From Candidatus Saccharimonadota bacterium (GTDB taxonomy: Bacteria > Patescibacteriota > Microgenomatia > UBA1406 > GWC2-37-13), in contig CP065004.1 in assembly GCA_016700135.1 (NCBI GenBank), forward strand, positions 1,380,001 through 1,412,000: a stretch of 32,000 nt of DNA. The letters run 5' to 3'. Positions 9,345 through 24,237 of this stretch are shown here, piece after piece. The position numbers and the translations under genes are program-made. The notes below the pieces were generated by a model. It saw only the letters and a program-made list of their open reading frames with translations, did no database searches and was not told the origin of the DNA. The first letter of the stretch is position 1, and the number at the start of each line of letters is the position of its first letter.

Positions 9345-11036
9345 TTATGCGAGACGTACCTCGTCAACTGATGAACCGGTCGGGATCATGGGAAATACAT
9401 TTTCTTCCTGCTCGACTTTTATCTCAAGTACATACGGACCATTGTGATCAAGCATCTTTTGCAATGCCTTTTTCAGATCAATTCTTGCCACAACACGGTC
9501 TGCTTCCAAACCGCACCCTTTTGCTACTGTCACAAAATCAGGACTCTGAATATTCACCATCGAATACCGCTTTTCAAAGAAAAGCTGCTGCCATTGTCGT
9601 ACCATTCCCAGAAAGCCGTTATTAAGAATAATCACTTTCACTGGAAGCTGCTCCTGAGCCAGAGTAGTAAACTCCTGTATATTCATCTGGATACCCCCGT
9701 CACCTGAAATTGAAATAACTTCCTGATCGGGACGGGCAAATTTTGCACCCATTGCAGCAGGAAGGCCGAATCCCATTGTTCCCATCCCGCCTGAGGAAAT
9801 CCAGCTATTCGGACGGGAAAACCGGTAATATCTTGCCGTAACCATCTGATGTTGTCCGACATCAGACACGACAACGGCTTCTCCTTTTGTCAGTTCAGAC
9901 AGCAGCGTCACTGCTTCTGCCATTGTTATTTCCCCGGTTTTCGGATGTGTGACTCCGTCAATTACTTGTTTCTTTTCTACTTCATAGAGTTTCTTAAATT
10001 CACGTATCCAATTTGTATGAGTGTTTTTACGGATTGCTTTTGTCAGTGATTGCAAAGCAATTTTGGCGTCAGCCACAATCGGCACATCAGCAGGTACATT
10101 TTTATTGAGCTCCGCCGGATCAATATCAATATGAATGACGGTTGCATCATTCAAATAATCGGAAAGCCTGCCTGTCACCCGGTCGTCAAACCGCATTCCG
10201 ATTGCCAAAACAGCATCGGCTTTGTTTGAGAGCATATTCGGAGCATAGTTGCCGTGCATCCCCAAGAAACCGACATGAAGAGGATGTCCTGAATGAAGTG
10301 CGGAAAGACCGTGCAGCGTGAAAGCTGCCGGAAAATCTCCTTTTTCCAGAAACGCTTGAAGTTCTTTTTGAGCTTTGGCAATCTGTACGCCTTGACCTAC
10401 TAATATCAAAGGACGTTCTGCATTGTTTAAATAACGTGCTGCTATCTCTATCTGTCTCTGATGAGGTTCGGTTGTCGGCTGATAACTCTGTAACGAAATG
10501 TCTTCGGGATACGAAAAATCCATCATCTCAAATTGCGCATCTTTGGTGATGTCAATAAGTACCGGTCCGGGTCTGCCGGTACGGGCAATATGAAAAGCCT
10601 TTGCCATCACTTCCGGTATTTCACTTGCTTTTGTGATCTGATAGTTCCATTTGGTGACCGGTGCAGTTATGCCTATCACATCCGCTTCCTGAAATGCATC
10701 GGTACCGATCACTCCGCTGTGTACCTGTCCGGAAATACATACCATCGGGACACTGTCCATCATCGCATCAGCAATAGCCGTCACTAAATTGGTCGCTCCC
10801 GGTCCTGATGTCACGAGACAAACACCCGGATTACCTGTCATCCGGCCGTAGCCTTCGGCAGCATGTCCCGCTCCCTGTTCATGACGGACAAGCACATGCT
10901 TGATCCTTCCGTCATTTGTATAATCATACAGAGCATCGTAAACAGGCATGATAGCCCCTCCGGGATATCCGAATATTACTTCCACATTTTCTTGGAGTAA
11001 CGATTCAAGAACTGCTTGTGAACCTGATATTTTCAT
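9345..11036 (-). CDS. ilvB: Acetolactate synthase large subunit
   Basis: ThDP-enzyme motifs GGMGTMGFGLPAAMGA and GDGGIQMNIQE. Start taken at MKISGSQAVLESL (11036), 2 nt after the ilvE stop. The track start at 11063 would overlap ilvE. Confidence 0.92.
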   Translation of the reverse strand: MKISGSQAVLESLLQENVEVIFGYPGGAIMPVYDALYDYTNDGRIKHVLVRHEQGAGHAAEGYGRMTGNPGVCLVTSGPGATNLVTAIADAMMDSVPMVCISGQVHSGVIGTDAFQEADVIGITAPVTKWNYQITKASEIPEVMAKAFHIARTGRPGPVLIDITKDAQFEMMDFSYPEDISLQSYQPTTEPHQRQIEIAARYLNNAERPLILVGQGVQIAKAQKELQAFLEKGDFPAAFTLHGLSALHSGHPLHVGFLGMHGNYAPNMLSNKADAVLAIGMRFDDRVTGRLSDYLNDATVIHIDIDPAELNKNVPADVPIVADAKIALQSLTKAIRKNTHTNWIREFKKLYEVEKKQVIDGVTHPKTGEITMAEAVTLLSELTKGEAVVVSDVGQHQMVTARYYRFSRPNSWISSGGMGTMGFGLPAAMGAKFARPDQEVISISGDGGIQMNIQEFTTLAQEQLPVKVIILNNGFLGMVRQWQQLFFEKRYSMVNIQSPDFVTVAKGCGLEADRVVARIDLKKALQKMLDHNGPYVLEIKVEQEENVFPMIPTGSSVDEVRLA

Positions 11037-11038
11037 AA

Positions 11039-11977
11039 TTACACTTTGATTTTGGTACACCAACTTTCATATTTTTTCTCGTTGCCGCGTACGACTCTGA
11101 AAAAGAGGTCTTGGAGCGTCCCGGAAACCGTTCCTCTTTTTCCGTTGCCGATCCGTCTTTTATCGATATGCGAAATCCATGCTATTTGAGCGCCCGTCCC
11201 ACAGAAGAATGCTTCATCCGCAACATACAGTTCACTGCGGTCAATCGTACGTTCTTCCACCGGGATACCCTGATCTTTCGCAAGCTGAAGCACTGATCTT
11301 CTCGTGATTCCCTCTAAAATATCATCACTTTTCGGCGGAGTGATCAGTACTCCGTCACGCACCATGCAGAAATTCATGGCTGATCCTTCTGCGACATGCC
11401 CCGATTCATTCAGAAATATCGCTTCGTCATAACCGTTCAAGGTTGCTTCATGTTTTGCCATTGCTGAGTTGATGTATCCGCCGGCTATTTTGGCTCGTGA
11501 AGGGATGGCATTGTCAGAAATCCGTCTCCAGGAAGATACACAAACGCTGATTCCTTTATCAGTCGGCAAATAATCACCCAACGGAATCATATACAAAGCA
11601 AAACTGAACTCATGATCACGATCGAGATTGGGTGATAAATTCGTGCTTCCGGCATAGGCAAATGGGCGGAAGTAGGTATCGGACTGCGGATTATTTTTTT
11701 CGGTAAGATCGGTCGTAATCTTCACAAGTTCCTCTCTGTTGTACTGAAGATCGACTCCGATGATTTTGAGAGAATTAAGAAATCGCTTGTAGTGATCGTC
11801 AATTCTGAAAAGAGAAATAAATCCTTTTTCCTTGTTGTAATAACCCCGTATTCCACCGAAAACAGCTGTCCCGTACTGCAGAGCATTCGTCATAACTGAT
11901 ACTTTTGCATCTTCCGTTTTGACGACTTTGCCCTCAAAAAATGCATAAGGATGTGAGGTAGTTTGAAGATGGGACAT
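11039..11977 (-). CDS. ilvE: Branched-chain amino acid aminotransferase (fold type IV)
   Basis: BCAT-like N-terminus (FFEGKVV...YGTAVFGGIRGY) and GITR motif. Start at MSHLQTT (11977), because the longer track ORF runs through the attenuator terminator. Confidence 0.9.
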   Translation of the reverse strand: MSHLQTTSHPYAFFEGKVVKTEDAKVSVMTNALQYGTAVFGGIRGYYNKEKGFISLFRIDDHYKRFLNSLKIIGVDLQYNREELVKITTDLTEKNNPQSDTYFRPFAYAGSTNLSPNLDRDHEFSFALYMIPLGDYLPTDKGISVCVSSWRRISDNAIPSRAKIAGGYINSAMAKHEATLNGYDEAIFLNESGHVAEGSAMNFCMVRDGVLITPPKSDDILEGITRRSVLQLAKDQGIPVEERTIDRSELYVADEAFFCGTGAQIAWISHIDKRRIGNGKRGTVSGTLQDLFFRVVRGNEKKYESWCTKIKV

Positions 11978-12041
11978 ATATTTGGAAAAAAAATAATAAT
12001 TTCCTTTGGGCTCATTTTTACTTACATAAGCTTTCAAGGCT

Positions 12042-12068
12042 AAAAAAAAACCCGCCTGTCTGGCGGGT
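12042..12068 (-). terminator. Intrinsic terminator of the ilv leader (attenuator)
   Basis: Minus strand: ACCCGCC-agaca-GGCGGGT followed by a run of T residues. It lies about 65 nt upstream of the ilvE ATG and 30 nt downstream of the leader-peptide stop. Confidence 0.8.
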
Positions 12069-12097
12069 GCAAATGTCATTCGAATGCCCTCCCGCCG

Positions 12098-12148
12098 TTA
12101 GCGGTTAATAAGGAGGACAATAAGTGCAAATGACATCGGATTTTTCAT
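12098..12148 (-). CDS. ilv operon leader peptide, 16 aa: MKNPMSFALIVLLINR
   Basis: ATG AAA AAT CCG ATG TCA TTT GCA CTT ATT GTC CTC CTT ATT AAC CGC TAA. Six of seven consecutive codons are Leu/Ile/Val. It sits between the predicted promoter and the terminator, and alternative pairings are available. Confidence 0.7.
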   Translation of the reverse strand: MKNPMSFALIVLLINR

Positions 12149-12160
12149 ACGATAAAAAGT

Positions 12161-12189
12161 ATTATAGAAAACAAATCTTCATAATGCAA
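12161..12189 (-). promoter_or_regulatory. Sigma70-like promoter of the ilv/leu operon
   Basis: Minus strand: TTGCAT (12189-12184), 17-nt spacer, TATAAT (12166-12161). The -35 box begins 9 nt after the aroC stop codon. Confidence 0.6.
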
Positions 12190-12198
12190 ACACAAGCA

Positions 12199-13308
12199 TC
12201 ACACTTCTCCGAATCGTTCCAGAATATTTTGTGCGAGGACATACGCAAGCATCGCTTCAGAAACAACTCCAGCACGTGGTACCACACAGATATCAGACCG
12301 TTCGACGGTCGCTTTTACCTGTTCTTTTGTCGAGATATCGACGGTATTCATCGGCTTGTAAAGTGTTGATATCGGTTTATGATAGACGCGGGCGACAACG
12401 GGCATCCCGTTCGTGACTCCGCCTTCAACGCCTCCCGCACGATTTGTTTTTCGGTAATAACCTTCCTCTTTATTGTGAAAGATCTCATCATGTACATCTG
12501 ATCCAAATGATCCCGAAGCAGAGATACCTGATCCTATCTCAACCGCTTTTACTGACTGAATACTCATCAGTGCCTGAGCAATCTGTCCGTCAATTTTTCT
12601 GTCCCAATGCACATAACTTCCAAGACCCGGAGGAATATTGTTTGCCCATACCTCAACGACACCTCCAAGAGTATTCATTTCCTTGCGTGCTTTTTCAATC
12701 AGTTTTTTCATTCGTTGGGATGTTTTCGGGTCAACACACCGTATCTCGGGATCCTTTTCATACGTTTTTTGAATATCTTCAAAAGTGTATTCTGTGTCAA
12801 TGGAAATATCGCCGATCTGGACGGTATGGCTTGCAATCTCTATTCCGTCTCTCATAAGCAGTTGTTTAAAAACGGCACCGGCAGCAACCCTTGCCGTCGT
12901 CTCGCGGGCAGATGCCCTTTCTAAAACATTTCTGACATCATCAAATCCGTATTTCTGGACGCCCGGAAGGTCGACATGCCCGGGACGCGGCTCAGTCACT
13001 CGGGCCGATGCAACAACTTCTTCAGGCTGCTCTTTGATACTCATCTTGTCACCCCAGTTTTTGAAATCTTTATTCCATATAATCATGGAAATCGGGCTGG
13101 CAATCGTCTTGCCGAAACGAATACCCGACAAGATCTCAACCTCATCTTTTTCAATCAGCATCCGTCCTCCTGATCCTGCTCCTTTCTGCCTTTTTGCAAG
13201 TTCCTGGTTGATGTAGTCAACCGAAATCGGAACACCGGCAGGCATCCCTTCAATAATAACCGTTAATCCTTTGCCGTGCGACTCGCCGGCTGTTAAAAAT
13301 CTAAGCAT
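12199..13308 (-). CDS. aroC: Chorismate synthase
   Basis: 369 aa with the N-terminal signature MLRFLTAGESHG and chorismate synthase similarity throughout. Confidence 0.95.
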   Translation of the reverse strand: MLRFLTAGESHGKGLTVIIEGMPAGVPISVDYINQELAKRQKGAGSGGRMLIEKDEVEILSGIRFGKTIASPISMIIWNKDFKNWGDKMSIKEQPEEVVASARVTEPRPGHVDLPGVQKYGFDDVRNVLERASARETTARVAAGAVFKQLLMRDGIEIASHTVQIGDISIDTEYTFEDIQKTYEKDPEIRCVDPKTSQRMKKLIEKARKEMNTLGGVVEVWANNIPPGLGSYVHWDRKIDGQIAQALMSIQSVKAVEIGSGISASGSFGSDVHDEIFHNKEEGYYRKTNRAGGVEGGVTNGMPVVARVYHKPISTLYKPMNTVDISTKEQVKATVERSDICVVPRAGVVSEAMLAYVLAQNILERFGEV

Positions 13309-13318
13309 TTTATATTAC

Positions 13319-13412
13319 TGAACGAAGTAACCAAAATTTGTGAATGAAGTGGATGTTTGAGCGGACAAGCTTAGGGCGAGTTCACTTCTGAACAAATTTT
13401 CGGTTACGAGTG
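13319..13412. repeat. Intercistronic nested-palindrome element, diverged copy D (~94 nt)
   Basis: GAACGAAGTAACCAAAATTTGTGAATGAAGTGGATGTTTGAGCGGACAAGCTTAGGGCGAGTTCACTTCTGAACAAATTTTCGGTTACGAGTGA. The arms are conserved and the inner stem is changed compensatorily (GAAGTG/CACTTC versus GAGGTG/CACCTC). Confidence 0.8.
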
Positions 13413-13433
13413 ATTTAAAAAATAGTAATAAAT

Positions 13434-14102
13434 TTATATCAACAAACTTTTATACACCTTCTTCATCTCCCCAATCTCTATCTGCCCCGGCGCACTCTCA
13501 CACCACGGAGTAGATGCAAATGTCAGAAAACCCCCGAGAAGCGGAGCAAGAATCCGGGTGATACGTCCCTTCTCTCCCATCCCTATCACAATTCTGTTTT
13601 CCGTATGCGGTTTATTCGTAAGCAACCGATACAACTTTGTGACTTCATACTCTTTCTGTACCATAGTGGCTATTTTCAGGACATCCGGTTTGAACTTACT
13701 CATCTCAAAAATCACCTTTTGCATATCCCAATAACTTGGCGTTTCAACAAAATTGTGATATGACAAAATAACTTTAGTACCGTCTTCGCAGCTGAAATCA
13801 TGTTTTTTGACCGTCGATAATTCAATATCAACATATTCAAAAAGTCCGATCCCGCGCTGAAGAATTTTGACCCGTTGATTTTCCGGATCCTCGAAACTTC
13901 CGCCTTCCTCTTTTGATCTGCAGGTAAAAATCGCTTCTTTCTTCGTCTGATCTTTGATAGTTCGGATATGATCCATAGACAACCCTCGGATCGAATCAAC
14001 ACGAAGTTCAATACAGTCAGAAATGTCCTGTGTTTTTGCAAGATTACTCAAAAATTCATCTATGGTGCCTCCTGTGACCGGAGTGCAGATTTTGATATCC
14101 AT
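13434..14102 (-). CDS. aroD: 3-dehydroquinate dehydratase, type I
   Basis: 222 aa with type I DHQase features (ELRVD, SYHNF, and the Schiff-base lysine context KIATM). Confidence 0.88.
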   Translation of the reverse strand: MDIKICTPVTGGTIDEFLSNLAKTQDISDCIELRVDSIRGLSMDHIRTIKDQTKKEAIFTCRSKEEGGSFEDPENQRVKILQRGIGLFEYVDIELSTVKKHDFSCEDGTKVILSYHNFVETPSYWDMQKVIFEMSKFKPDVLKIATMVQKEYEVTKLYRLLTNKPHTENRIVIGMGEKGRITRILAPLLGGFLTFASTPWCESAPGQIEIGEMKKVYKSLLI

Positions 14103-14105
14103 ACC

Positions 14106-14933
14106 TTATTGTAAAACCTTTCTCATAACTTCAATCGGTGCTTTTCTCCCCGTGTACAACTCAAACTGAGCAGTGCCCTGATGAAGGAGCATTTCAACTC
14201 CCTGTACCGTAACCGCACCCTGCTCTTTTGCCTCCTTCAACAATCTCGTTTCCCGAGGCTTGTATACTGCATCGAAGACAATGTGACCTTTTCTCAAATA
14301 TTCTTTCTGCAAGGGTGTTTGATCAATCTGTTCACCCATCCCGAGACTTGTTGCATTGAGAATAATCTCATGTTTCGGTATTTCACGCGACATATCATCA
14401 TATGTAAAAACGGATACATCAGAATCGAGCTCCTTTGCAAGTATCTGAGCTTTTTTTTGGTTTCTGTTAAAAACTGAAAGTTTCGCCCCTTTCTCAAGAA
14501 CTCCGTACGCCATAGCCCGGGCCGCACCTCCCGCCCCTACTAATGCAACGGATGTGCCACGAAGATCTCCGGCATGATTCTCAAGCGGTATGACCGTACC
14601 GAGCCAGTCGGTATTGTATCCTTTCAGTACTCCTTTATCGTTTACAACCGTATTCACGGCTCCGATTTTTTCAGCAATCGGATCAATTTCATCAAGATAC
14701 TTCATCACTTCCATTTTGTGAGGGATCGTACAAGTCAATACCCGGATATTCATGACACGAACTGCCTGCACGACATCCTTCACGTCTTCAAGATTCACAC
14801 GGGCAGCGACAAACACAAATTCATCGTCAATACCGAGCGCTTCATATGCTGCATTGTGCATTGCAGGCGATAAGGAATGCTCGACAGGATCGCCGATAAT
14901 GACACATATTTTTGTTTTTCCTGATATGTTCAT
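14106..14933 (-). CDS. aroE: Shikimate 5-dehydrogenase
   Basis: Motifs GDPVEHSLSPAMHN and GAGGAARA. Its start overlaps the upstream DUF1653 gene stop (ATGA). Confidence 0.93.
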   Translation of the reverse strand: MNISGKTKICVIIGDPVEHSLSPAMHNAAYEALGIDDEFVFVAARVNLEDVKDVVQAVRVMNIRVLTCTIPHKMEVMKYLDEIDPIAEKIGAVNTVVNDKGVLKGYNTDWLGTVIPLENHAGDLRGTSVALVGAGGAARAMAYGVLEKGAKLSVFNRNQKKAQILAKELDSDVSVFTYDDMSREIPKHEIILNATSLGMGEQIDQTPLQKEYLRKGHIVFDAVYKPRETRLLKEAKEQGAVTVQGVEMLLHQGTAQFELYTGRKAPIEVMRKVLQ

Positions 14934-15145
14934 TCTTCTCTTATAAACTCAAAACGAGGGGCCTTTTTCCCGTTGATTGAAACCGTTTCCGTAAACATTG
15001 AAAGCGGTCTGATCCAAAATGCCGAGTCGGATTTATATAATGGTTCATATATGACATAGTCTTCCAGAGTTTCTGAGTGGCGGGCAACTCCGTGTACACG
15101 ATACTCCTTCCCTTTGTAATGCCGATAAATTCCTTTTTTTATCAT
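14930..15145 (-). CDS. Small DUF1653-like protein (71 aa) embedded in the shikimate operon
   Basis: GIYRHYKGKEYRVHGVARHSETLEDYVIYEPLY...WIRPLSMFTE...RFEFI matches my recollection of the DUF1653 pattern. It starts 1 nt after the aroK stop and overlaps the aroE start. Confidence 0.65.
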   Translation of the reverse strand: MIKKGIYRHYKGKEYRVHGVARHSETLEDYVIYEPLYKSDSAFWIRPLSMFTETVSINGKKAPRFEFIREE

Positions 15146-15146
15146 A

Positions 15147-15725
15147 TTATAATGCCCGAATGTTCATAATCTGTTCTACAACCTCTTTCAGCAGACTCTT
15201 ATCCTTCAGATCGGCCGGCTCATTTTTATACAGTTTTAAGACAATCTCCTTTGCGATTTTCACCGCATCTTTACCTTTTGTACGAATGGTCATATCCGCG
15301 TATTTTTTGTAAAGCGGTAATCGAAAATGATACAACCGATATGCATCCCTCACATTCCCAAACAAAGGCCGCGGCGTTTTGTCTTTGATAACACGCTGTT
15401 CCAGTGTCTGAAACGACGCATGCAAAAATATTACATGACCGTTATTCTTTTTTAAATATTCCGGAATAATGTTGTTCATAACTACACCGCCACCTGTTGA
15501 TATGACAGTTTTTTCTTTCTCCTGCCATTCTTTTGCAAGTGCAATTTCCCATTCTCTGAGATATATTTCTCCGTTCTTTGAAAACAGCTCCTGCATGTCC
15601 CTAAAATTCGTTTTTTCTAAAACTACTTTGTCCATCTCAACAAATTCGAATCCGAGCATGTTTGCCAATGCTTCTCCAACGGTGGTTTTCCCCGATCCCA
15701 TAAATCCGATCAGTGCTATTTTCAT
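15147..15725 (-). CDS. aroK: Shikimate kinase
   Basis: P-loop GFMGSGKTTVG and shikimate-binding region ISTGGGVV. 192 aa. Confidence 0.9.
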   Translation of the reverse strand: MKIALIGFMGSGKTTVGEALANMLGFEFVEMDKVVLEKTNFRDMQELFSKNGEIYLREWEIALAKEWQEKEKTVISTGGGVVMNNIIPEYLKKNNGHVIFLHASFQTLEQRVIKDKTPRPLFGNVRDAYRLYHFRLPLYKKYADMTIRTKGKDAVKIAKEIVLKLYKNEPADLKDKSLLKEVVEQIMNIRAL

Positions 15726-15746
15726 AGGTTTTGATTAATTACTAAT

Positions 15747-15835
15747 GACCGCAAAATAATCAAAATTTGTCTTATCATAACTGCCATCCATTATAGATCT
15801 GGCTTTATGAAAAGCAAATTTTCGGTTACAAGCGC
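15747..15835. repeat. Intercistronic element, copy E (arms conserved, different core)
   Basis: GACCGCAAAATAATCAAAATTTG ... CAAATTTTCGGTTACAAGCGC. The core is replaced by CTTATCATAA...TTATGAAAAG and GCCA...TGGC stems. The 3' arm overlaps the last codons and the stop of aroA. Confidence 0.65.
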
Positions 15836-17109
15836 TTTTGATATTCCAATCCAATTGCTCTCAATTTCTCCCAATACTCAGGAAACGTTTTTTTCACAAC
15901 TTCAGGATCGTTAATCTTCATCCCTTCAATTTTTGCTCCCGCCATCGCAAAACTCATCGCCATACGGTGATCGTGATAGGTGTCAATAACCGCCGCATGA
16001 GGTTTTCCTCCGAACACGTGCAAAGAATCTTCATCAGGTGACTCCGTGCGTATACCCATTTTAGCAAGTTCCTGTTGTACCGCCTTAACCCGTTCCGTTT
16101 CCTTCACCCTGAGGGAACGTACTCCCGTCATTTTTGTCACTCCTTCAGCAAACGCCGCAAGAACCGCAAGAGTCTGCGCCTGATCGGGACAGCTTTCCAT
16201 ATCAACTTCGAGTGCCCGGACACCGGTCCCTTTTATCGTTATCCTATCCTCGTCGTACACAACTTCATTTCCCATTTTTTGAATAATTTCCAGAAATTTT
16301 TTATCACCCTGTGTAGAATCCTGACGTAGATTCTTCAATGTGATTGTCATGCCCGTAAGAGCCGCAATACCCGCAAAATAACCCGCCGCAGAGTAATCTC
16401 CTTCAACGATATATTCACTCATTCTGTACGATCCGGCAGGAACTTCATACCATTTATAATCATTGTTCTGAACGGAAACTCCCCATTCCCGCATCATCTC
16501 GAGTGTGATATCTATATATGATTTTGAGATCTGGTTTCCCTCAACTTCGATTGTCATACCGCCGATTACGGGAGCTATCAAAAGTAACGCTGTAAAATAT
16601 TGACTGCTCACATCCCCATGCATTCGAACGAATCTTTTAGTGACCGTTGACTGATGAACGGCAATAGGAGGAAACCCATCCTGATTTTCGTATACTATCT
16701 CGATCCCCATCTGACGCAATCCGTCAACCAGATCTTTTATCGGGCGCTCATTCAGACGACCGATTCCGAAAATCTTTTTTACACCCGGGACAATCGCTGC
16801 CAGTGCGGTTATAAATCTTATAGTTGTTCCTGACAATCTCGCATTCAGTTCATATCCGCTTTTCTTTACATCAGCAATACTTCCGCGGACAATGACCTCA
16901 TGATCACGCTTTTCTATCTTGATGCCAAGCGTTTGCAGACACTCAATCATTGCTTCAGTATCATCACTCCACAACGGATATTTGATCGTCACCGCGCCCC
17001 GCGTCAATGCCGCCATAACGAGTGCCCGATTGGTCACACTTTTTGATCCCGGTATGACAACGGTTGCCTCCACCGGTTTTTGAATTGGTTTTAATTGTAT
17101 TTGTTTCAT
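15826..17109 (-). CDS. aroA: 3-phosphoshikimate 1-carboxyvinyltransferase (EPSP synthase)
   Basis: 427 aa with the N-terminal motif PGSKSVTNRAL and EPSPS similarity throughout. Confidence 0.95.
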   Translation of the reverse strand: MKQIQLKPIQKPVEATVVIPGSKSVTNRALVMAALTRGAVTIKYPLWSDDTEAMIECLQTLGIKIEKRDHEVIVRGSIADVKKSGYELNARLSGTTIRFITALAAIVPGVKKIFGIGRLNERPIKDLVDGLRQMGIEIVYENQDGFPPIAVHQSTVTKRFVRMHGDVSSQYFTALLLIAPVIGGMTIEVEGNQISKSYIDITLEMMREWGVSVQNNDYKWYEVPAGSYRMSEYIVEGDYSAAGYFAGIAALTGMTITLKNLRQDSTQGDKKFLEIIQKMGNEVVYDEDRITIKGTGVRALEVDMESCPDQAQTLAVLAAFAEGVTKMTGVRSLRVKETERVKAVQQELAKMGIRTESPDEDSLHVFGGKPHAAVIDTYHDHRMAMSFAMAGAKIEGMKINDPEVVKKTFPEYWEKLRAIGLEYQKRL

Positions 17110-17132
17110 ATGGAAATGAATAACAGTATGAA

Positions 17133-17219
17133 AATTTTTGAGAGTTATCTTTGAGCCGATCAGATCGAGATCTTGTTGATATATGCCTACTCCATAGGCG
17201 AACTAGCTCGCAAAAAATT
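17133..17219. other. ~87-nt structured intercistronic element (G) between aroB and aroA
   Basis: The outer arms AATTTTTGAGAG and CTCGCAAAAAATT can pair. They enclose two hairpins: ATCAGATC-GA-GATCTTGTTGAT and GCCTA-ctcca-TAGGC. The arms weakly resemble those of copies A-E. Confidence 0.35.
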
Positions 17220-17247
17220 ACATAGTATTCGACAAATATCAAATAAT

Positions 17248-18336
17248 CTAACCCACAATATACTCAATTGCCTTTTTCACAAACTTATCATCAACACTCA
17301 CATTAAATTCGCCCTGCCCGATCCCGCTGAGGAGCGTCCACTTGATATGCCCCTTTTCAACTTTTTTGTCCGTTAACATTGCTCTCAACACATCATCTAC
17401 GACCAGACCTTCATATCTTACCGGCAACCCTACGCGCTTTATCCCGCTTTCAATTTTGTTAAACTCTTTTTCTGTAATCATCCCGATAAGCTGGCAAATG
17501 TAACTCTCAGCTATCATGCCAATTGAAACAGCCTCACCATGAAATAACGGATTTTGTGACTTCATACTATGTGACTCAATGACATGCCCGACCGTATGGC
17601 CGAAGTTCAGCAGTTTTCGTAATCTGTGCTCTGTCTCATCCTGACGGACTATCTCTGACTTAATATGGACAGACTCTGCAACAATATCTATTAATTCCTT
17701 ATCAGTCATCTCAAGAGGACTTTTCTTAACCGCTTCTTCAAAGTAGTTACTATCCTCGATAAGTCCATGCTTAATTACTTCTGCATACCCCTGAATCAAC
17801 ACGCGGTGAGGCAGTGTTTTTAACGTTTCAACGTCACAGACAACAAGTTCAGGCTGCGTGAATGAACCAATGTAATTTTTTAACGTACCAAGATTCACAC
17901 CTGTTTTTCCGCCGACACTGGCATCAACCATTCCTTCCAAAGTCGTTGAAATATTTATAAACGATACGCCGCGCAAATAACCTGAAGCTGCATAGCCTCC
18001 CAGATCAGTAACCACACCACCGCCAAGATTGACAATCAATGCTTTCCTGTCAATCATATTCTTTGCCATATCTTTCCATATTTCAACTACCGTCCCGATT
18101 TGCTTGCTGGATTCTCCGGCTGGAAACACAAATGAATACATATTTGCAATCCGTTGAGAAAAGATTTTAATAACAGGCTTCAGATAATGTCTTGAAACAT
18201 TTGAGTCAGTAATAATATATATTGATGAATACCCTGCTAGATCAATCAAATCGGGGATCAGTTCAATAATATTCTCACCGACACATACTTGATATTTCCG
18301 TGCTTGTTTTTGTATACCAACTTCAATTGTTTTCAT
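17248..18336 (-). CDS. aroB: 3-dehydroquinate synthase
   Basis: 362 aa with GGGVVTDLGGYAA and metal-binding LNFGHTVGHVIE motifs. Confidence 0.95.
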   Translation of the reverse strand: MKTIEVGIQKQARKYQVCVGENIIELIPDLIDLAGYSSIYIITDSNVSRHYLKPVIKIFSQRIANMYSFVFPAGESSKQIGTVVEIWKDMAKNMIDRKALIVNLGGGVVTDLGGYAASGYLRGVSFINISTTLEGMVDASVGGKTGVNLGTLKNYIGSFTQPELVVCDVETLKTLPHRVLIQGYAEVIKHGLIEDSNYFEEAVKKSPLEMTDKELIDIVAESVHIKSEIVRQDETEHRLRKLLNFGHTVGHVIESHSMKSQNPLFHGEAVSIGMIAESYICQLIGMITEKEFNKIESGIKRVGLPVRYEGLVVDDVLRAMLTDKKVEKGHIKWTLLSGIGQGEFNVSVDDKFVKKAIEYIVG

Positions 18337-18365
18337 GGTTTGTATTCAACTATTAATCTTAGTAT

Positions 18366-19184
18366 TTATTCCGAATATGTCTGACCTTTTTCATATATCC
18401 CGACCATTCTGTATGAAAGCGTTTCCTTTTCCAATAACACTTTGAACGTTTCTGCTGATCCCTCAGGGATCTCCACATCAATCCAAAAAAGATATTCCCA
18501 GTTCGAACCGGGAACGGGACGGGATTCGATTTTGGACATATTACCTTTGGCATCTGCTATCGCCTGCAGTACCTTGACCAGGCTTCCCGGTTCATGCTTT
18601 ACCTTGAAAATAACCGTAATTTTATTCTGTATCTTACCGAGGCTAAAAAGGCTATTTGATACAAATACCCATCGGGTCATATTGTGTGAGGTATTTCCAA
18701 TATTTTCCTTAATAATTCGGAGATTTGTATCGGCAAGTGAGCCTCGACCTGCTATTGCGGCTTTTGTATTATCCTGCAGTGTATCCACTTCCCGTACTGC
18801 AGATGCGGTACTCGGTGTCTCATGGGTTATAAGACCGTGTTTTTCGATAAATGAAGAACATTGTACAATCGCCTGAGGATAAGAAAATATCTCTCTGACA
18901 TCTGTAATATCCGAATCGCTGGTCCCAATGAGATGGAGCTGGATATCCATACATGCTTCACCGACAATGTAAAGATCAGTATGAAAGACGAGATCTATAT
19001 TCTCATGAACGGAACTGCTTATGGAATTTTCTATACCCAGAAGTCCCATACTCTTTTTGTCGTTCATAACAGCATCAGAAATGTGGACAAAGGTGGGCAT
19101 CGGTATCAGCTCATCATCGGGACAGACTTTTTGCAAAAGCGCATAACTGTATGATCCTTTCGGACCTAAATAATATATTTTCAT
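18366..19184 (-). CDS. pheA: Prephenate dehydratase (PDT plus ACT domain)
   Basis: 272 aa with a PDT domain and a C-terminal ACT domain carrying the ESRP motif (SKIESRPVPG). Its start overlaps the tyrA stop. Confidence 0.9.
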   Translation of the reverse strand: MKIYYLGPKGSYSYALLQKVCPDDELIPMPTFVHISDAVMNDKKSMGLLGIENSISSSVHENIDLVFHTDLYIVGEACMDIQLHLIGTSDSDITDVREIFSYPQAIVQCSSFIEKHGLITHETPSTASAVREVDTLQDNTKAAIAGRGSLADTNLRIIKENIGNTSHNMTRWVFVSNSLFSLGKIQNKITVIFKVKHEPGSLVKVLQAIADAKGNMSKIESRPVPGSNWEYLFWIDVEIPEGSAETFKVLLEKETLSYRMVGIYEKGQTYSE

Positions 19185-19894
19185 GACTGTTGTAATAATA
19201 AACTAATTGACTGATATGCTGAATTAATTTTTTCAAACTGCTTTTTGCAAAAAGGATTAAAGGTATACATTTCCTTTAATAGTTTTGTATCGTCGGTCTG
19301 TACCATTTCGACAAAATCAAAGAGTGATTCGACTGATCGTGTGTCAATCGGGCTTCTTGATAGTTTGATTTCTTTAACTAAAGCCGCAATGACATGTGCG
19401 GTAAAATGAAATTCTGCTGCATACCCGTCATGTTCTTCGGCAGACATTTCGATAATATCAAGACCTGTCTTTCGGAAAGAGTCATAAACTTCAGAGTAAA
19501 TATGACCTTTCACTCGAACCTTTTCCATCACGATCCGTAATCCGTTTAGATTGTTCCCGAGTTTTGCAACTGTACCCGGACCGAACATCGGATGTGAAGC
19601 AACAATTTGAATATGAGGCGGCAATTCACTCTTCATGATTGAAACCGGATAAGATTTAACGGAACAAACATCCATTACAGTCGCCCCTTCCTTCAGCAAC
19701 GGTGCAATAGTCCCGATAACTTCCGCAAAATGATTTATTGGAACTGCAGGAATAACCAAATCACATTGATGAACATCGGATATAGTATCTCTTGCAATAG
19801 AAATTATCTCAGCTTGCGGAAACACAGAAGGGAGTATCTCCAGAAGGAGAGTCCCGAATTTTCCTTGACCGATGATACCGACGTTTCGAATCAT
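19181..19894 (-). CDS. tyrA: Prephenate/arogenate dehydrogenase (short form)
   Basis: N-terminal dinucleotide fold IIGQGKFG and catalytic-region motif SHPMFGPG. Only 237 aa. Confidence 0.85.
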   Translation of the reverse strand: MIRNVGIIGQGKFGTLLLEILPSVFPQAEIISIARDTISDVHQCDLVIPAVPINHFAEVIGTIAPLLKEGATVMDVCSVKSYPVSIMKSELPPHIQIVASHPMFGPGTVAKLGNNLNGLRIVMEKVRVKGHIYSEVYDSFRKTGLDIIEMSAEEHDGYAAEFHFTAHVIAALVKEIKLSRSPIDTRSVESLFDFVEMVQTDDTKLLKEMYTFNPFCKKQFEKINSAYQSISLLLQQS

Positions 19895-20157
19895 TATTTC
19901 GATCGTTCAACTTCCAATGCCCAATTATGAAGGACGTCCCATATGGATAAGACTACGGACTCCGGGATAAATAGTTCCACCGCTATCTCTTTTCTCTTTT
20001 CAATCATCTCCCCGAAACGGGTTTCATCTTTGATGGGAAGACTACTGACCTTTTTACGTTCACCAATTGCTTCCACAACATCCCGTCTCTTTGAGAGCAG
20101 GATCAGGATGTCATGATCAATCTCATCGATTTTTTTCCGTAAATCATTAATTTCCAT
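19894..20157 (-). CDS. aroQ: Chorismate mutase, AroQ class (monofunctional, 87 aa)
   Basis: LRKKIDEIDHDILILLSKRRDVV is a typical AroQ helix-1 pattern. TAATG overlap with tyrA. Confidence 0.85.
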   Translation of the reverse strand: MEINDLRKKIDEIDHDILILLSKRRDVVEAIGERKKVSSLPIKDETRFGEMIEKRKEIAVELFIPESVVLSIWDVLHNWALEVERSK

Positions 20158-20161
20158 TTGA

Positions 20162-21199
20162 TTAGTGTGACGAATACTTATAATTGGGCTTCTCTTTCAT
20201 TTTTGTCCTCTTTTTTGATTTTTGCTTTCCTTCCTCAGGCGCGACAAGATCTCTGAATGATGACAGAACAGATACCAATTCCCGCAACTCCTGAATGGTG
20301 ATGTGCTGTTCGGTATCAGTTGTAGATGTTCCCGTCTCGATCAATGCTCCGTCATACAGAAACTCATCCTGGGCTGTTTTCATGCGCATCGCTTCAACAA
20401 CTGCTCCAACAATATGTGAGCGGAGTTTCGGGCCGTATGAATGACTGGGATCAAAGTACAATTTTGCTCCCGTTTCTTTTTTGACGCGTCGGGCAATATT
20501 GTGGACTACCGCACTGCGGAAATCACCTTTCCCCGGCACATCAACTCCCCGGTGGATAAGAATAATGTCCCCGTCGAGATCCTGGATATATCGCGTCAAT
20601 CCAGACCATGTCTTTTCCATAGTGGTTTTCCCTGTGTAATTTTCATCGTCTGCCGAATGAAGATGATCTCCGATCCACTTACCGTTTTTCAGTCCGATAT
20701 GCCAGCCGTTTCGTTTTGCAAACAATGCCGTTTGCTCGATATGCCAACCCAGCTGATTGACTGCAGGATTCCAGGGAATAAATTTCCCTTTACCGACTTT
20801 CCCTTCAAAAGACGGAAGCTGAATGATCGGATTCATTACCTCGGTCGCTATTATCATTCCTGTCTCATTCACAATTTCTTCAGCGATGTAGGCACTGGGC
20901 AAAATTTCAAGATCTTTAATTCCGCCTCCGTTCATAATAATCTCAACGTTTTTTCTGTACGCGTCATAATCCATACCCATACCGTTTCCGGATGAATCCA
21001 GCTCGGTCCGTGATTTCAAACCTACAATTCGTGTCCCTCCGATTGCACGATGTTTCTTACCTTCGCGATTTGTAATTTCAATTTCTGAGATCTCCCTGAT
21101 CTCCTTAATATTATTGTCATCAACAGAACAGGGTCCTGCGATGATTATTGCTGATCGGTTTTTCATATTTTTTTTAAATGATAATGAGTTTTGGACCAT
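20162..21199 (-). CDS. Divergent DAHP synthase-like protein (type I-beta DAHPS/KDO8PS fold), putative 3-deoxy-7-phosphoheptulonate synthase
   Basis: IIAGPCSVDD, VGLKSRTE, ATEVMNP, HRGVD and FDPSHSYG echo the I-beta DAHPS core motifs (GPCS[VI]E, KPRTS, xTEV, ERG, DPSH), but with long insertions and a Lys-rich tail. It is the first gene of the aro operon. An alternative start at 21166 (MKNRSAIIIAGPC) is plausible. Confidence 0.6.
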   Translation of the reverse strand: MVQNSLSFKKNMKNRSAIIIAGPCSVDDNNIKEIREISEIEITNREGKKHRAIGGTRIVGLKSRTELDSSGNGMGMDYDAYRKNVEIIMNGGGIKDLEILPSAYIAEEIVNETGMIIATEVMNPIIQLPSFEGKVGKGKFIPWNPAVNQLGWHIEQTALFAKRNGWHIGLKNGKWIGDHLHSADDENYTGKTTMEKTWSGLTRYIQDLDGDIILIHRGVDVPGKGDFRSAVVHNIARRVKKETGAKLYFDPSHSYGPKLRSHIVGAVVEAMRMKTAQDEFLYDGALIETGTSTTDTEQHITIQELRELVSVLSSFRDLVAPEEGKQKSKKRTKMKEKPNYKYSSH

Positions 21200-21200
21200 T

Positions 21201-21225
21201 AAAAAACCCCGCCTTGCGGGCGGGG
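21201..21225 (-). terminator. Intrinsic terminator of the aro leader (attenuator)
   Basis: Minus strand: CCCCGCC-cgcaa-GGCGGGG followed by TTTTTT. The T-run ends 1 nt before the ATG at 21199. Confidence 0.8.
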
Positions 21226-21241
21226 TGGTGATTGTTATGTT

Positions 21242-21322
21242 TTAAGCACAACTTCCCACGCCGCCCGAGGCGGTAAAGTAAAAGTAAAAATAAAAGCTGT
21301 TGTGGGAAGCTTTTTGTATCAT
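21242..21322 (-). CDS. aro operon leader peptide, 26 aa: MIQKASHNSFYFYFYFTASGGVGSCA
   Basis: ATG ATA CAA AAA GCT TCC CAC AAC AGC TTT TAT TTT TAC TTT TAC TTT ACC GCC TCG GGC GGC GTG GGA AGT TGT GCT TAA. Seven consecutive alternating Phe/Tyr codons lie just upstream of the 1:2 / 2:3 / 3:4 pairing segments. Confidence 0.75.
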   Translation of the reverse strand: MIQKASHNSFYFYFYFTASGGVGSCA

Positions 21323-21329
21323 AAATTCA

Positions 21330-21357
21330 ATTGTAACAGAGAAACCGGCGCTGTCAA
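21330..21357 (-). promoter_or_regulatory. Sigma70-like promoter of the aro operon (extended -10)
   Basis: Minus strand: TTGACA (21357-21352), 16-nt spacer ending in TGT, TACAAT (21335-21330). The -35 box starts 1 nt after the upstream gene's stop. The leader ATG is 7 nt downstream of the -10. Confidence 0.7.
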
Positions 21358-21358
21358 C

Positions 21359-22717
21359 TTACAAAAGCAGCATCACGCCGATCCCGAATGCGATCATTCC
21401 GACTCCGGCCATCATCATGGGAATAATACTCATACCCGAAACAGGCGGTGTCGGAACCCCTGTCAGCGTACCGCTTATAATCGGTGTCGGAGAAGCCAGT
21501 ATTCCGGACGGTGTTGGAGATCTCACTGTCGTCGGAGTGGGAGTGGCAGTTGAGACAATAACTGTCGGTGCTGTGGAGGGAGTGATCGATCCTGACGGGG
21601 TTGCCTCATCTGATTCGCCCAATACCCGCTCACCGCTTTTTATCAACGTAAACTCACGTTCTAGCTGTACGATATCCCCTTTTGCGTCTTCCGTTTGAAC
21701 GGTCAATGTGTACTTTCCGGGTTTAATACTCGTTTTTACCGGCACATTCCATTCACCTTTTTCATCCACGATAACTCTTGATGAAAATTCCGGTTTTGAA
21801 TCTATCGTCACCTCAGCTGCCTTACCGGGAATACCGTATCCTTTGATAAGAGGCGCTACACCGGGAATGACGGCTCCCTGTTTCGGAAAACGAATGTCTA
21901 CGATATCACGCCTGACAGGGACTTCCGATTTCTTATTCGTATTCTGTACGGCCAGCACATCGGTTTCTGCGATAAAAGAGTAATTATTTCCCAAAGTGAT
22001 CGGCTGGGGAATGGGTCTGCTCCGATTAATAGTGCTTCGTACCATGGATCTGTTCTCATCATCAAACAACTGAATAGTAATCAATGCATCGTCAGTAACC
22101 GGTACGGAGCTACGGGTTTGTTTATTGGCCAAATACTGCAAGGGAATAAGCCATTCCCCGGTATTCCCGGTCATGGTCATCAGAGGATATGCATTACCGA
22201 CAATAAGCATTGCATAAGCCGATTTTGCAGGCTGACCGTTTGTTTGGATAACTTTGCCGTAAATCGGGGACAGGGAGGTCATCGCTGCGGATTCTTCCAA
22301 CGTCATTGATTCAAATGCACCACCGTCTTCATGCGAAATGAGTTCATTATTGCTCACGATTTTATAGTAGTATACTTTGTCCGGCTGCAGATTCTTAAGG
22401 AGCGCATAGTGATATTTTCTCTTTGTTTTCTCACTTTTGATATCTCTCTCGTCAAGCGCAATAAGATCAAGAGAAGAATCGTTCTCGCCGTACATGATCC
22501 ATCCTTCATCGGGTTCATCAGTCTCCCAGAAAACTCCTATTTGACGGGGAGAAACATTTACGACCTCATGTTCCTTAAGCGTTCTTTTTGATGCTCGGGT
22601 CGGTGAAGAATCCTGCGAAAGCAAAAAAATAACCGTGGAGACAACCACAAAAAGCGCCGCAAAAGCGAGATATTTTGTAAATCTGAAATGGGACTGAGTA
22701 TATAATTCTGAATACAT
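21359..22717 (-). CDS. Membrane-anchored surface protein with an FN3-like N-terminal domain, a Pro/Thr/Ser-rich linker and a C-terminal TM helix
   Basis: N-terminal TM (YLAFAALFVVVSTVIFLL). FN3 / purple-acid-phosphatase-N-like segment (VSPRQIGVFWETDEPDEGWIMYG...YYYKI). PTS-rich tract (TPSTAPTVIVSTATPTPTTVRSPTPSG...). C-terminal hydrophobic anchor (IIPMMMAGVGMIAFGIGVMLLL). Confidence 0.6.
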   Translation of the reverse strand: MYSELYTQSHFRFTKYLAFAALFVVVSTVIFLLSQDSSPTRASKRTLKEHEVVNVSPRQIGVFWETDEPDEGWIMYGENDSSLDLIALDERDIKSEKTKRKYHYALLKNLQPDKVYYYKIVSNNELISHEDGGAFESMTLEESAAMTSLSPIYGKVIQTNGQPAKSAYAMLIVGNAYPLMTMTGNTGEWLIPLQYLANKQTRSSVPVTDDALITIQLFDDENRSMVRSTINRSRPIPQPITLGNNYSFIAETDVLAVQNTNKKSEVPVRRDIVDIRFPKQGAVIPGVAPLIKGYGIPGKAAEVTIDSKPEFSSRVIVDEKGEWNVPVKTSIKPGKYTLTVQTEDAKGDIVQLEREFTLIKSGERVLGESDEATPSGSITPSTAPTVIVSTATPTPTTVRSPTPSGILASPTPIISGTLTGVPTPPVSGMSIIPMMMAGVGMIAFGIGVMLLL

Positions 22718-22719
22718 AG

Positions 22720-22902
22720 TTAAGGCGTTTTCTTTTCCAGTACATCAAGGATGTCCGTATTAATAGTATACTCTACCGTTGCTGACTGAATTTCTTCATT
22801 TGTAGGAGTATCCTGACTAATAGCACGGACTTCCACAATAACCCATGCAATGATAGTCAAAAATATGATTACCGCTATGACTAATAAATCACGTTGACTC
22901 AT
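22720..22902 (-). CDS. Small single-pass membrane protein (60 aa)
   Basis: TM helix LLVIAVIIFLTIIAWVIV. ATGA overlap with the upstream PilO-like gene, and 2 nt from the downstream gene. Confidence 0.5.
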   Translation of the reverse strand: MSQRDLLVIAVIIFLTIIAWVIVEVRAISQDTPTNEEIQSATVEYTINTDILDVLEKKTP

Positions 22903-23462
22903 AAGAAATACGTTTTTATTGTTAATGTAATCTTGGTCGAGCCTTCCGATTCGCTTGATATTTCGACTGATTCAAACATCTTCAGCCTGCGTTGTTTCAG
23001 TATCGCCGTTATAAAAGTGTTCAGATCTGCAGTCGATCCCTGCGAACTCAGAAGTATCTGAAACGTCTGCAACTCACCGGTTCCTCTATCATCAGAAAAC
23101 TCAACGCTCTCAACAGTCATTTCAGAAACAAGGAGTCCGGAAGCCGATGCTGTCCCTCTCACATCTTCTATCGCCTTCGCAAGCCCCGGAGAAGAAGGGA
23201 TCGCTTCATCCAACAATGTCAGTTTATCCCGATAATTCTCCATGACTGACTGATAGTTTACAATCTGCAAAATTACATTCTCCGCTTCTTTATTTTTCAA
23301 ATCAAGGTCCTTTAGTTCTTTTTGCAAATTAAATGCTGTCAGGATATTCGGTCTGATTGCAAAAATTAAAAAGATAGAAAAAACCAAAAAAAAGAATATC
23401 GTAAAGCTATAATCCTGAATCTTTTTTTCATGCATTAATGCAACAAGTTTTTTGCGATCCAT
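22899..23462 (-). CDS. PilO-like type IV pilus assembly protein
   Basis: 187 aa with an N-terminal TM, a coiled-coil segment (LQKELKDLDLKNKEAENV), then an alpha/beta domain. It follows a PilN-like gene. The assignment rests on architecture and weak motif recall only. Confidence 0.5.
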   Translation of the reverse strand: MDRKKLVALMHEKKIQDYSFTIFFFLVFSIFLIFAIRPNILTAFNLQKELKDLDLKNKEAENVILQIVNYQSVMENYRDKLTLLDEAIPSSPGLAKAIEDVRGTASASGLLVSEMTVESVEFSDDRGTGELQTFQILLSSQGSTADLNTFITAILKQRRLKMFESVEISSESEGSTKITLTIKTYFL

Positions 23463-23464
23463 GG

Positions 23465-23989
23465 TTAGGGTATAAACTCAGCTAAATGCAAACTGAAACT
23501 AAATCTTTCTTCACCTTTTTCGATTGTTGATAAATCAATTACTTTGTATCTTTGATCTGCCTGAAGTGCATCGTACATAGCTTTTATCGGCTCAACCGTT
23601 GCGGATGATCCGTCAATATCCACAGCATCGGCTCCCATAACAAAATTTTCGATACGGATTTCTGAGGAGATTTTTGACAATGTATAGGAGTATTTTGCCT
23701 GAAATACCTCCTGTTCATCAAGAACAGTCTGTACCTGCTTCATTTTGGTATCAATTTCCTGGATCCGACTGACAAGTTCACTTGTTGCCGAAACGATGGA
23801 TTGCTTTTGGTTGAGTTTATCTTTGAGATCTACAATTTCCTGATCAACTTTGAACCTAAAGAAGAACACGCAGATCGCTACGAACTGCGTTATGACTAAA
23901 ATATAGCGAAGATAGTGAAAGGCAAAGTAGATGATTTTTTCTGATACATTCTTCTCTTTTTCCGGAAACAGGTTAATGAGGTATTTCAT
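23465..23989 (-). CDS. PilN-like type IV pilus assembly protein
   Basis: N-terminal INLFPEK (compare the PilN INLLP motif), one TM, then a coiled coil. Its start overlaps the rpsT stop (ATGA). Confidence 0.55.
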   Translation of the reverse strand: MKYLINLFPEKEKNVSEKIIYFAFHYLRYILVITQFVAICVFFFRFKVDQEIVDLKDKLNQKQSIVSATSELVSRIQEIDTKMKQVQTVLDEQEVFQAKYSYTLSKISSEIRIENFVMGADAVDIDGSSATVEPIKAMYDALQADQRYKVIDLSTIEKGEERFSFSLHLAEFIP

Positions 23990-24237
23990 GACGCCTTAGA
24001 AACCAATCTACTAACGCGCTTTTTTAATCTTCCTGCTGTATTTTTGTGTATGATGTTCTTTTTTGCCGCTTTATCAATCGAAGCATATGCTTCATTCACA
24101 AACTCTTTCTTTTTTGTCTTTACACCGCTTGTTGCTTTTCTCAAGATGCCTTCAATTTTACCGCTGTAAGCAGCATTTCTCTCTGTTCTTGCAACATCCT
24201 GTTTCATTTTCTTTTTTGCTGATTTAATGTTTGGCAT
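23986..24237 (-). CDS. rpsT: 30S ribosomal protein S20
   Basis: 83 aa, MPNIKSAKKKMKQDVARTERN...IHKNTAGRLKKRVSRL, the typical bS20 pattern. Confidence 0.92.
   Translation of the reverse strand: MPNIKSAKKKMKQDVARTERNAAYSGKIEGILRKATSGVKTKKKEFVNEAYASIDKAAKKNIIHKNTAGRLKKRVSRLVSKAS

Follow-up and report, generated by a model that had tools for sequence, protein, structure and literature searches.

The locus described here raises the question of how the synthesis of phenylalanine and tyrosine is controlled in a genome of the Roizmanbacteria. The stretch that was analysed, 32,000 nucleotides of contig CP065004.1 (positions 1,380,001 to 1,412,000; hereafter the window), carries ten Pfam-supported genes of aromatic amino acid synthesis on its minus strand (21166 to 12199), and in front of them lies a leader with a promoter, a 26-codon open reading frame (ORF) containing a run of alternating Phe and Tyr codons (the F/Y run), and an intrinsic terminator (Table 1). 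It is highly probable, as judged from the sequence and its relatives, that this leader is a ribosome-mediated attenuator of the trp/phe type, which couples the 10-gene operon to the charging of tRNA-Phe and tRNA-Tyr. The original prediction, made from the letters of the DNA, had likewise proposed that an attenuator with an F/Y run controls a shikimate/Phe/Tyr operon, and this central claim is supported by the recurrence of the leader in related genomes (56 of 80 loci), by the covariation of its helices, by the conservation of its antiterminator, and by a spacing that corresponds to the ribosome footprint. The mechanism is the known one and no new mechanism is proposed; what is new is an uncatalogued RNA family that is widespread across the Patescibacteria, or Candidate Phyla Radiation (CPR).

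The promoter, the small ORF with its seven consecutive Phe/Tyr codons, and the terminator with its six T residues are all present on the minus strand as originally described, at 21357-21330, 21322-21242 and 21226-21201, respectively. The promoter agrees with the consensus at 11 of 12 positions, possesses the TG of an extended -10 element, and is the top sigma-70-like site in the 17 kb that were scanned (7000-24000). Trp codons are missing from the leader, also as described, and a run of at least seven F/Y codons occurs only once in all six frames of the window, with one of 200 shuffled windows containing such a run. The 131-nt leader folds with a z score of -4.55, none of 200 shuffled sequences being as stable, and just two strong intrinsic terminators exist on the coding strand between 7000 and 24000, both of which belong to attenuators. 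The ATG follows the -10 box so closely, after 6-7 nt, that a leaderless mRNA is implied. The ORF has no Shine-Dalgarno sequence before it, which is no objection to its translation because the 4-nt core is found upstream of only 1 of the 30 genes of the window; the genome appears to do without Shine-Dalgarno-led initiation. Translation of this kind is known from ilvL, the leader of ilvBNC in Corynebacterium glutamicum, which is translated without a ribosome-binding site and whose transcription starts 1 nt from the start codon (PMC11857589). The window contains another F/Y-rich stretch, YFYFF at 99-113 of the minus strand, which was rejected as a leader, having neither an in-frame ATG nor a terminator, and was judged to have arisen by chance.

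The leader transcript can adopt pairings that compete with one another. Segments A and A' form a 10-bp long-range helix around the F/Y run, which becomes an internal loop between A:A' and the shorter helix B:B', and the combined energy of the two helices is -20.3 kcal/mol. The latter helix, CCGCC (21273-21269) with GGCGG (21265-21261), had been recognized at the outset as the pairing of segments 1 and 2, but that description was incomplete: segment 1 is bipartite, with A placed before and B after the F/Y run, and A:A' had been missed. The pairing of segments 2 and 3, proposed to match at 9 of 10 positions, was confirmed, and it extends to 10 of 11 positions with one additional G-C pair. The antiterminator so formed has an energy of -19.3 kcal/mol, or -21.1 kcal/mol with an extra hairpin, and it and the terminator are mutually exclusive because its 3' arm takes up the 5' arm of the terminator. 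The region preceding the terminator effectively duplicates A and B joined together, minus the codon run. When the leader was folded with a ribosome masking part of it, placement of the A-site at codons 10-14 gave the antiterminator, and placement of the ribosome at the stop codon gave the terminator.

From these elements, the working of the leader can be pictured as follows. The sigma-70-type promoter would start transcription at the AUG or within 1-2 nt of it, and a ribosome would begin to translate the 26-codon ORF on the nascent, leaderless mRNA. If both Phe and Tyr are plentiful, the ribosome would reach the UAA codon and cover B' and A', the terminator would form, and transcription would stop after ~120 nt. 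If the ORF is not translated at all, A:A' and B:B' would lock up B' and A', and the terminator would be expected to form here too. A shortage of charged tRNA-Phe or tRNA-Tyr would make the ribosome stall in the F/Y run and keep A and B single-stranded, and the freed B'/A' (GGGCGGCGUGG) would pair with CCACCCCGCCC, sequestering the 5' arm of the terminator, with the result that RNA polymerase enters the operon. What has been observed is the sequence, the pairings with their conservation and covariation, and the spacing; the transcription start, the translation of the ORF, the premature termination and the response to amino acids are predicted features of this scheme.

The strongest argument for a functional leader is its conservation. 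One genome per species was scanned for homologs of the protein encoded by the first structural gene, which resembles 3-deoxy-D-arabino-heptulosonate 7-phosphate synthase (DAHPS), and this gave 80 loci. A small ORF rich in Phe, Tyr or Trp (F/Y/W) codons lies within 450 nt upstream of the DAHPS-like gene in 40 of the 80, and a hairpin with a run of at least 5 T follows 37 of these 40 first-found leaders. Small ORFs with at least 7 of 8 codons for F/Y/W were present at 21 of 78 loci versus 5 of 2352 control windows (0.2%). A covariance model built from 14 leaders and then run on the 80 loci detected leaders in 56 of these species-level loci, 61 distinct leaders in all, and thereby gave a positive answer to the comparative check suggested with the original prediction, namely whether the same leader stands upstream of orthologous operons. 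Some of them lie 1-2 kb upstream, with another gene, often that of a PfkB-family kinase, standing first in the operon. All loci of Cytophagales/Bacteroidota with the homologous gene lack the F/Y leader. Both Phe and Tyr codons exist in the run of every one of the 61 leaders, Tyr usually with two to three codons in alternation, and the 427 codons of the 7-codon windows comprise 232 for Phe, 124 for Tyr and 13 for Trp; beyond the run, the leaders have little peptide sequence in common. The geometry is also maintained. In the 39 leaders with a good promoter, the ATG most often follows the -10 box after 6-7 nt (19/39), and the interval is 5-9 nt in 28/39. Segment B starts at a median of 2 nt past the last F/Y/W codon, with an interquartile range of 2-2 among the homologous leaders, and B' starts 12 nt from where the last regulatory codon begins, at a position that coincides with the leading edge of the ribosome footprint.

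The pairings themselves have been kept while their sequences changed. In a covariance-model alignment of 50 sequences, which is fitted to the structure of the model, pairing in the OFF state (A:A', B:B' and the terminator) reaches 85.6% versus 45-51% with slid partners, and the covariation score of this state is 0.322 versus 0.05-0.075; both sides change in 20 of the 23 pairs, all 10 pairs of A:A' among them, and 91.9% of the cells of the terminator helix are paired. An alignment of 14 sequences made by MAFFT alone, and not fitted to any structure, shows 86.6% pairing of the OFF state versus 43-49%. MAFFT misplaced segment A when distant leaders were aligned, and the covariance-model alignment and alignment-free duplex tests were used instead. 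By the latter, the complementarity of A to A' and of A' to the pre-terminator region is higher within than between leaders, no permutation among 10000 being as good. Folds from B' to the 5' arm of the terminator, which correspond to the antiterminator, take up at least 4 of the 8 bases of the terminator arm in 47 of 48 leaders, with a mean energy of -18.2 kcal/mol versus about -9 kcal/mol for shuffled sequences (mean z of -3.9); the terminators have a mean of -13.5 kcal/mol.

The homologous leaders show several variations on this theme. A minority have a Trp codon in or beside the F/Y run (loci L012, L013, L020, L024-L027, L036, L049, L054, L057, L065, L068 and L072). Five loci have tandem F/Y leaders with their terminators before one operon (L052:3723-3954, L055:2419-2654, L059:3712-3944, L067:3610-3970 and L073:3597-3910), and the second copy of such tandem leaders has neither a promoter of its own nor a Shine-Dalgarno sequence. 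In L057, by contrast, the pheA/tyrA genes and the DAHPS-like gene each have an F/Y/W leader of their own, at 1054-1190 and 3820-3945, respectively. The gene of a PfkB-family (ribokinase-like) kinase stands between the F/Y leader and the DAHPS-like gene in L038 (3087-4004), L049 (3075-3989), L036 (2235-4000) and about nine more loci, and in L036 a class II fructose-bisphosphate aldolase is additionally encoded between the kinase and the DAHPS-like gene; this arrangement could point to an unusual supply of precursors for the pathway. In L007 (3849-3975), a 30-nt in-frame palindromic insertion (GUCCACAGGACGAUCGUCCUUUGGAC...) splits the F/Y run of a leader that is typical in other respects, and the peptide becomes …FFFSSTGRSSFGRYFYF…, while the insertion folds into a hairpin of its own.

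The aromatic leader is accompanied by sisters with other codon runs. A second attenuator is found on the minus strand of the window at 12190-12041, directly behind the aromatic operon, with a fold of -39 kcal/mol (z = -4.46) and an ORF in which the run consists of Ile, Leu and Val codons; the genes behind it are ilvE, ilvB, ilvN, leuA, ilvA, ilvD, ridA, ilvC and leuCD. Homologues of this leader exist at L019:1308-1415(-), L022:1042-1155(-) and L026:309-424(-). Locus L022 additionally has a Thr/Ile leader (…NIITTTIITAQ…) with a terminator at 1571-1705 (+), before genes for a shikimate-kinase-like protein, which weakly matches the 'homoserine kinase' exception model (34 bits), and a PALP enzyme, which is probably threonine synthase. 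The same genomes bear Ile/Leu/Val and Thr/Ile leaders before matching operons. A scan of the related loci for two-amino-acid codon runs before terminators returned F/Y runs and one I/T case, and no His or Trp leaders. We offer as a tentative generalization, which we consider less likely than not, that leader-peptide attenuation is a general, modular form of control in those Patescibacteria/CPR that make amino acids, in which codon cassettes are swapped on one leaderless scaffold, and that it constitutes the main amino-acid-responsive regulation of a lineage poor in transcription factors. The scaffold may be composed of the codon run, an ACC(C)GC...GGCGG hairpin and an ACCCGCC...GGCGGG-U7 terminator, and the second hairpin may be a near-copy of the first, so that the antiterminator pairing comes free. 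The cassettes seen serve aromatic genes with F/Y(/W), branched-chain genes with I/L/V and threonine genes with T/I, and in some cases they stand in tandem.

Several points weigh against attenuation of the aromatic operon by Phe and Tyr in the way proposed above. Left free and at full length, the leader has a minimum-energy fold of the antiterminator type (-44.1 kcal/mol versus -36.9 kcal/mol for the OFF state), and therefore termination must rely on the order of co-transcriptional folding and on the position of the ribosome. A stall at the earliest codons of the F/Y run leaves B outside the normal footprint of the ribosome. The covariance-model alignment favours its own structure, and the antiterminator pairs never vary on both sides within the 14 close sequences, where the sequence is conserved; because the pairs of this close group do not vary, the support for the antiterminator comes from the cross-clade tests only. 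The support for the proposed reading as a whole is comparative. In addition, the aroR leader of C. glutamicum, which has the codons Phe-Tyr-Phe, reportedly raises expression of aroF under Phe limitation, and Tyr availability had no effect (PMC11802643). This last point suggests a narrower function, in which the attenuator is real but senses Phe only and the Tyr codons are a tolerated filler, UAY being one base from UUY, and the ~2:1 excess of Phe over Tyr codons in the runs agrees with that. We nevertheless consider a sensor of Phe alone to be unlikely, because at least one Tyr codon is kept in all 61 runs, because the operon encodes both tyrA and pheA, and because random drift from UUY would also give codons for Leu, Ser, Cys and Ile, which are rare in the runs.

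Other explanations would take the ribosome, or the leader itself, out of the regulation. The switch might be worked by a protein, a tRNA or a metabolite with the small ORF being incidental, as the strong, conserved RNA structure independent of coding and the missing Shine-Dalgarno sequence might suggest. That sequence is lacking genome-wide, however, and the ORF, its frame, the constant interval between -10 box and ATG, and the F/Y run are kept even where the flanking peptide differs, while B follows the codon run at a constant, footprint-scale distance, the codon runs of the sister leaders fit their operons, and no T-box or riboswitch model matches; such a switch is very improbable. An independent function of the hydrophobic small peptide, whether by acting in trans, as peTrpL has been proposed to do, or through nascent-chain arrest, beside or instead of the sensing of hungry codons, has precedents in documented trans-acting leader peptides (PMC7298713), and the aromatic-rich peptide is indeed conserved as a motif. 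Outside the F/Y run, however, the peptide shows conservation only at places constrained by RNA pairing, and toward both termini it diverges freely from one clade to another, which makes this function equally improbable. Even less credence can be given to the idea that the hairpin and U-run merely terminate transcription of the upstream gene (21359-22717), and that the promoter-like site and the F/Y ORF arose by chance in a T-rich spacer. T-rich DNA easily encodes Phe and Tyr, the hairpin lies ~135 nt downstream of the stop codon of that gene, and the gene has no other terminator; but the leader moves with the aromatic operon despite differing upstream and first genes, for example where the PfkB kinase comes first, such ORFs occur in just 0.2% of control windows, and the helices co-vary.

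Attenuation by a ribosome stalling on Phe and Tyr codons, the reading that we prefer, has relatives among known systems. Leader-peptide attenuation had originally been described as mostly a matter of Proteobacteria, but it is documented in Actinobacteria and Firmicutes as well (PMC2965389, PMC1262725, PMC5794164), and a search of the literature found no relevant report of it in Patescibacteria, CPR or Roizmanbacteria. Nor is a single leader for Phe and Tyr as unusual as had been supposed, the precedent being the aroR leader of C. glutamicum upstream of the DAHP synthase gene aroF (Neshat 2014, via PMC11802643 and PMC7356990). The resemblance lies in Phe and Tyr codons directly before a DAHP synthase gene and in ribosome stalling; the differences are that aroR has three regulatory codons and the leader of the window seven, and that the former precedes an aroF-containing operon whereas the latter would control the common pathway and both terminal branches. 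They also belong to different phyla, Actinobacteria and Patescibacteria, and aroR was compared by its description only. The pheA leader pheL of Escherichia coli (RF01859) and the pheST leader likewise have, before a gene of the Phe pathway, a short ORF with a run of codons for Phe, hairpins that can form in alternative ways, and an intrinsic terminator (PMC3082878), but they are Phe-dominated, led by a Shine-Dalgarno sequence, and regulate one gene or a synthetase operon. The window scored 17.1 bits with the Rfam model RF01859 Phe_leader, for which the gathering score is 55, and is not a member of that family. E. coli trpL (RF00513) shares the four-segment logic, with 1:2 as the anti-antiterminator or pause structure, 2:3 as the antiterminator and 3:4 as the terminator, and also terminates when untranslated; it has Trp codons and a contiguous segment 1, in contrast to the segment 1 of the window, of which part A precedes and part B follows the codon run, and with 20.4 bits against a gathering score of 41 the window is not a member of RF00513 Trp_leader either. 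In enterobacteria, the thrL leader (Thr and Ile) and the leaders of ilvGMEDA and ilvBN (Ile, Leu and Val) mix codons for several end products. Through such mixing a shared pathway answers to several amino acids, as is well established, and this trait is reflected in the Ile/Leu/Val and Thr/Ile leaders described above. The enterobacterial leaders differ from the F/Y leader in their amino acids and phyla, and no similarity at the level of models was detected. The T-box riboswitches of Firmicutes also sense uncharged tRNA and choose between terminator and antiterminator before aro, phe and tyr genes (PMC1262725), but they bind tRNA directly and independently of translation, and their conserved leader is much longer. 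The Rfam search for the T-box gave no match in 20900-21700, even at E-values up to 10. At the gathering level, no Rfam family matches the window or 16 related loci. The matches that appeared with permissive thresholds were discarded, all being sub-threshold and driven by the terminator.

The CPR/Patescibacteria are usually portrayed as reduced, auxotrophic symbionts with scant regulatory capacity. The Roizmanbacteria genome of the window, by comparison, has complete-looking aromatic and branched-chain operons, each behind a predicted attenuator of the classical leader-peptide type, and neither such regulation nor such biosynthesis is expected in this phylum. The Phe/Tyr leader, which is present in more than 50 species-level genomes and absent from Rfam, is a new RNA family ready for annotation. 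It can serve as a marker of those CPR lineages that regulate, and so presumably use, amino acid synthesis, and it offers a natural case of leaderless, Shine-Dalgarno-independent attenuation outside the Actinobacteria.

The operon behind the leader runs from the DAHPS-like gene to that of chorismate synthase. It had been described as one of 11 genes, and the count of those with Pfam support is 10; the statement that tyrA and pheA are encoded without trp genes holds, inasmuch as tyrA-like and pheA-like genes were found and the window contains no trp gene. The true start of the first gene is most likely the ATG at 21166, because its homologues have ~334 aa, and not the mechanically assigned ATG at 21199, which overlaps the U-run. 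The protein itself is divergent: apart from the Pfam match below the cutoff, it scored 24.5 bits against an NCBIfam cutoff of 335, and a sequence search of the PDB returned no match. Its AlphaFold model (mean predicted local distance difference test score, pLDDT, of 82.6) best matches the DAHP synthase (DAH7PS) of Pyrococcus furiosus (E = 2.5e-10), followed by 3-deoxy-D-manno-octulosonate 8-phosphate (KDO8P) synthases. The modelled structure suggests that the protein is a remote relative with the DAH7PS/KDO8PS fold, and a putative DAHP synthase. The DAHPS-like family is widespread in Patescibacteria and Cytophagales, and the named relatives of the protein are from Roizmanbacteria, Woesebacteria and Dojkabacteria. 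The glycyl-tRNA synthetase encoded in the window is 100% identical to one annotated as Candidatus Roizmanbacteria bacterium, on a 1.45-Mb contig, and the uncultured organism accordingly belongs to the Microgenomates group of the Patescibacteria. Many MAG records with nearly identical CPR sequence (L001, L002, L006, L008 and numerous others) bear titles such as 'uncultured Gammaproteobacteria' or 'Pseudomonadales', which disagree with the relatives at the protein level (Roizmanbacteria and Woesebacteria) and resemble placeholders; they were left aside in the assignment. Between the chorismate synthase gene and the Ile/Leu/Val leader, the scan of 7000-24000 revealed no strong terminator, and the Ile/Leu/Val attenuator may double as the end point of transcripts of the aromatic operon.

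Table 1. Elements of the two leaders and genes of the aromatic operon, with their positions in the window.
Feature	Position	Strand	Remarks
-35 hexamer TTGACA	21357-21352	minus	TTGAC(A/T) with unchanged spacing in most homologues of the leader
Extended -10 element TGT-TACAAT	21338-21330 (TACAAT 21335-21330)	minus	16-nt spacer from the -35 hexamer, ending in TGT
Leader ORF MIQKASHNSFYFYFYFTASGGVGSCA, 26 codons + TAA (21244-21242)	21322-21242	minus	ATG at 21322, 7 nt past the -10 box
Segment A AGCUUCCCAC	21311-21302	minus	5' half of the anti-antiterminator; pairs with A'
Regulatory run UUU UAU UUU UAC UUU UAC UUU	21295-21275	minus	Seven alternating Phe/Tyr codons
Segment B CCGCC	21273-21269	minus	Partner B'; begins 2 nt past the last Phe codon
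Antiterminator 5' arm GGGCGGCGUGG	21266-21256	minus	B' and the start of A'
Segment B' GGCGG	21265-21261	minus	Starts 12 nt from where the last regulatory codon begins
Segment A' GUGGGAAGUU	21259-21250	minus	Partner A; alternatively, its 5' part with CCAC just before the terminator
Pairing segment 3 CCACCCCGCC	21228-21219	minus	Overlaps the terminator 5' arm
Antiterminator 3' arm CCACCCCGCCC	21228-21218	minus	Overlaps the terminator 5' arm
Terminator hairpin ACCCCGCC-CGCAA-GGCGGGGU	21226-21206	minus	-16.6 kcal/mol
Terminator U6 tract	21206-21201	minus	Predicted 3' end of the ~120-nt attenuated transcript
Divergent DAHP-synthase-like protein, 334 aa, first structural gene	21166-20162	minus	Pfam PF00793, 20 bits (below cutoff)
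Chorismate mutase (CM_2)	20157-19894	minus	Pfam
Prephenate dehydrogenase (tyrA-like)	19894-19181	minus	Pfam
Prephenate dehydratase + ACT domain (pheA-like)	19184-18366	minus	Pfam
3-Dehydroquinate synthase	18336-17248	minus	Pfam
5-Enolpyruvylshikimate 3-phosphate (EPSP) synthase	17109-15826	minus	Pfam
Shikimate kinase	15725-15147	minus	Pfam
Shikimate dehydrogenase	14933-14106	minus	Pfam
Type I 3-dehydroquinase	14102-13434	minus	Pfam
Chorismate synthase, last operon gene	13308-12199	minus	Pfam
Second promoter TTTGCA-18-TATAAT	12190-12161	minus	
Second leader ORF MKNPMSFALIVLLINR	ATG 12147	minus	Ile/Leu/Val run
Second terminator ACCCGCC-agaca-GGCGGGU + U9	12068-12041	minus	

Upstream of the aromatic leader, the minus strand encodes a 452-aa protein and a PilO-like protein (21359-23989). 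Purple-acid-phosphatase-N and Ig-like domains were recognized in the former, which ends in a hydrophobic C-terminal tail (…GVMLLL*); the stop codon of its gene and the -35 box of the promoter of the leader lie 1 nt apart. This upstream synteny, with the genes of both the 452-aa and the PilO-like proteins, is retained in the closest relatives (L001-L003, L006, L008 and L012).

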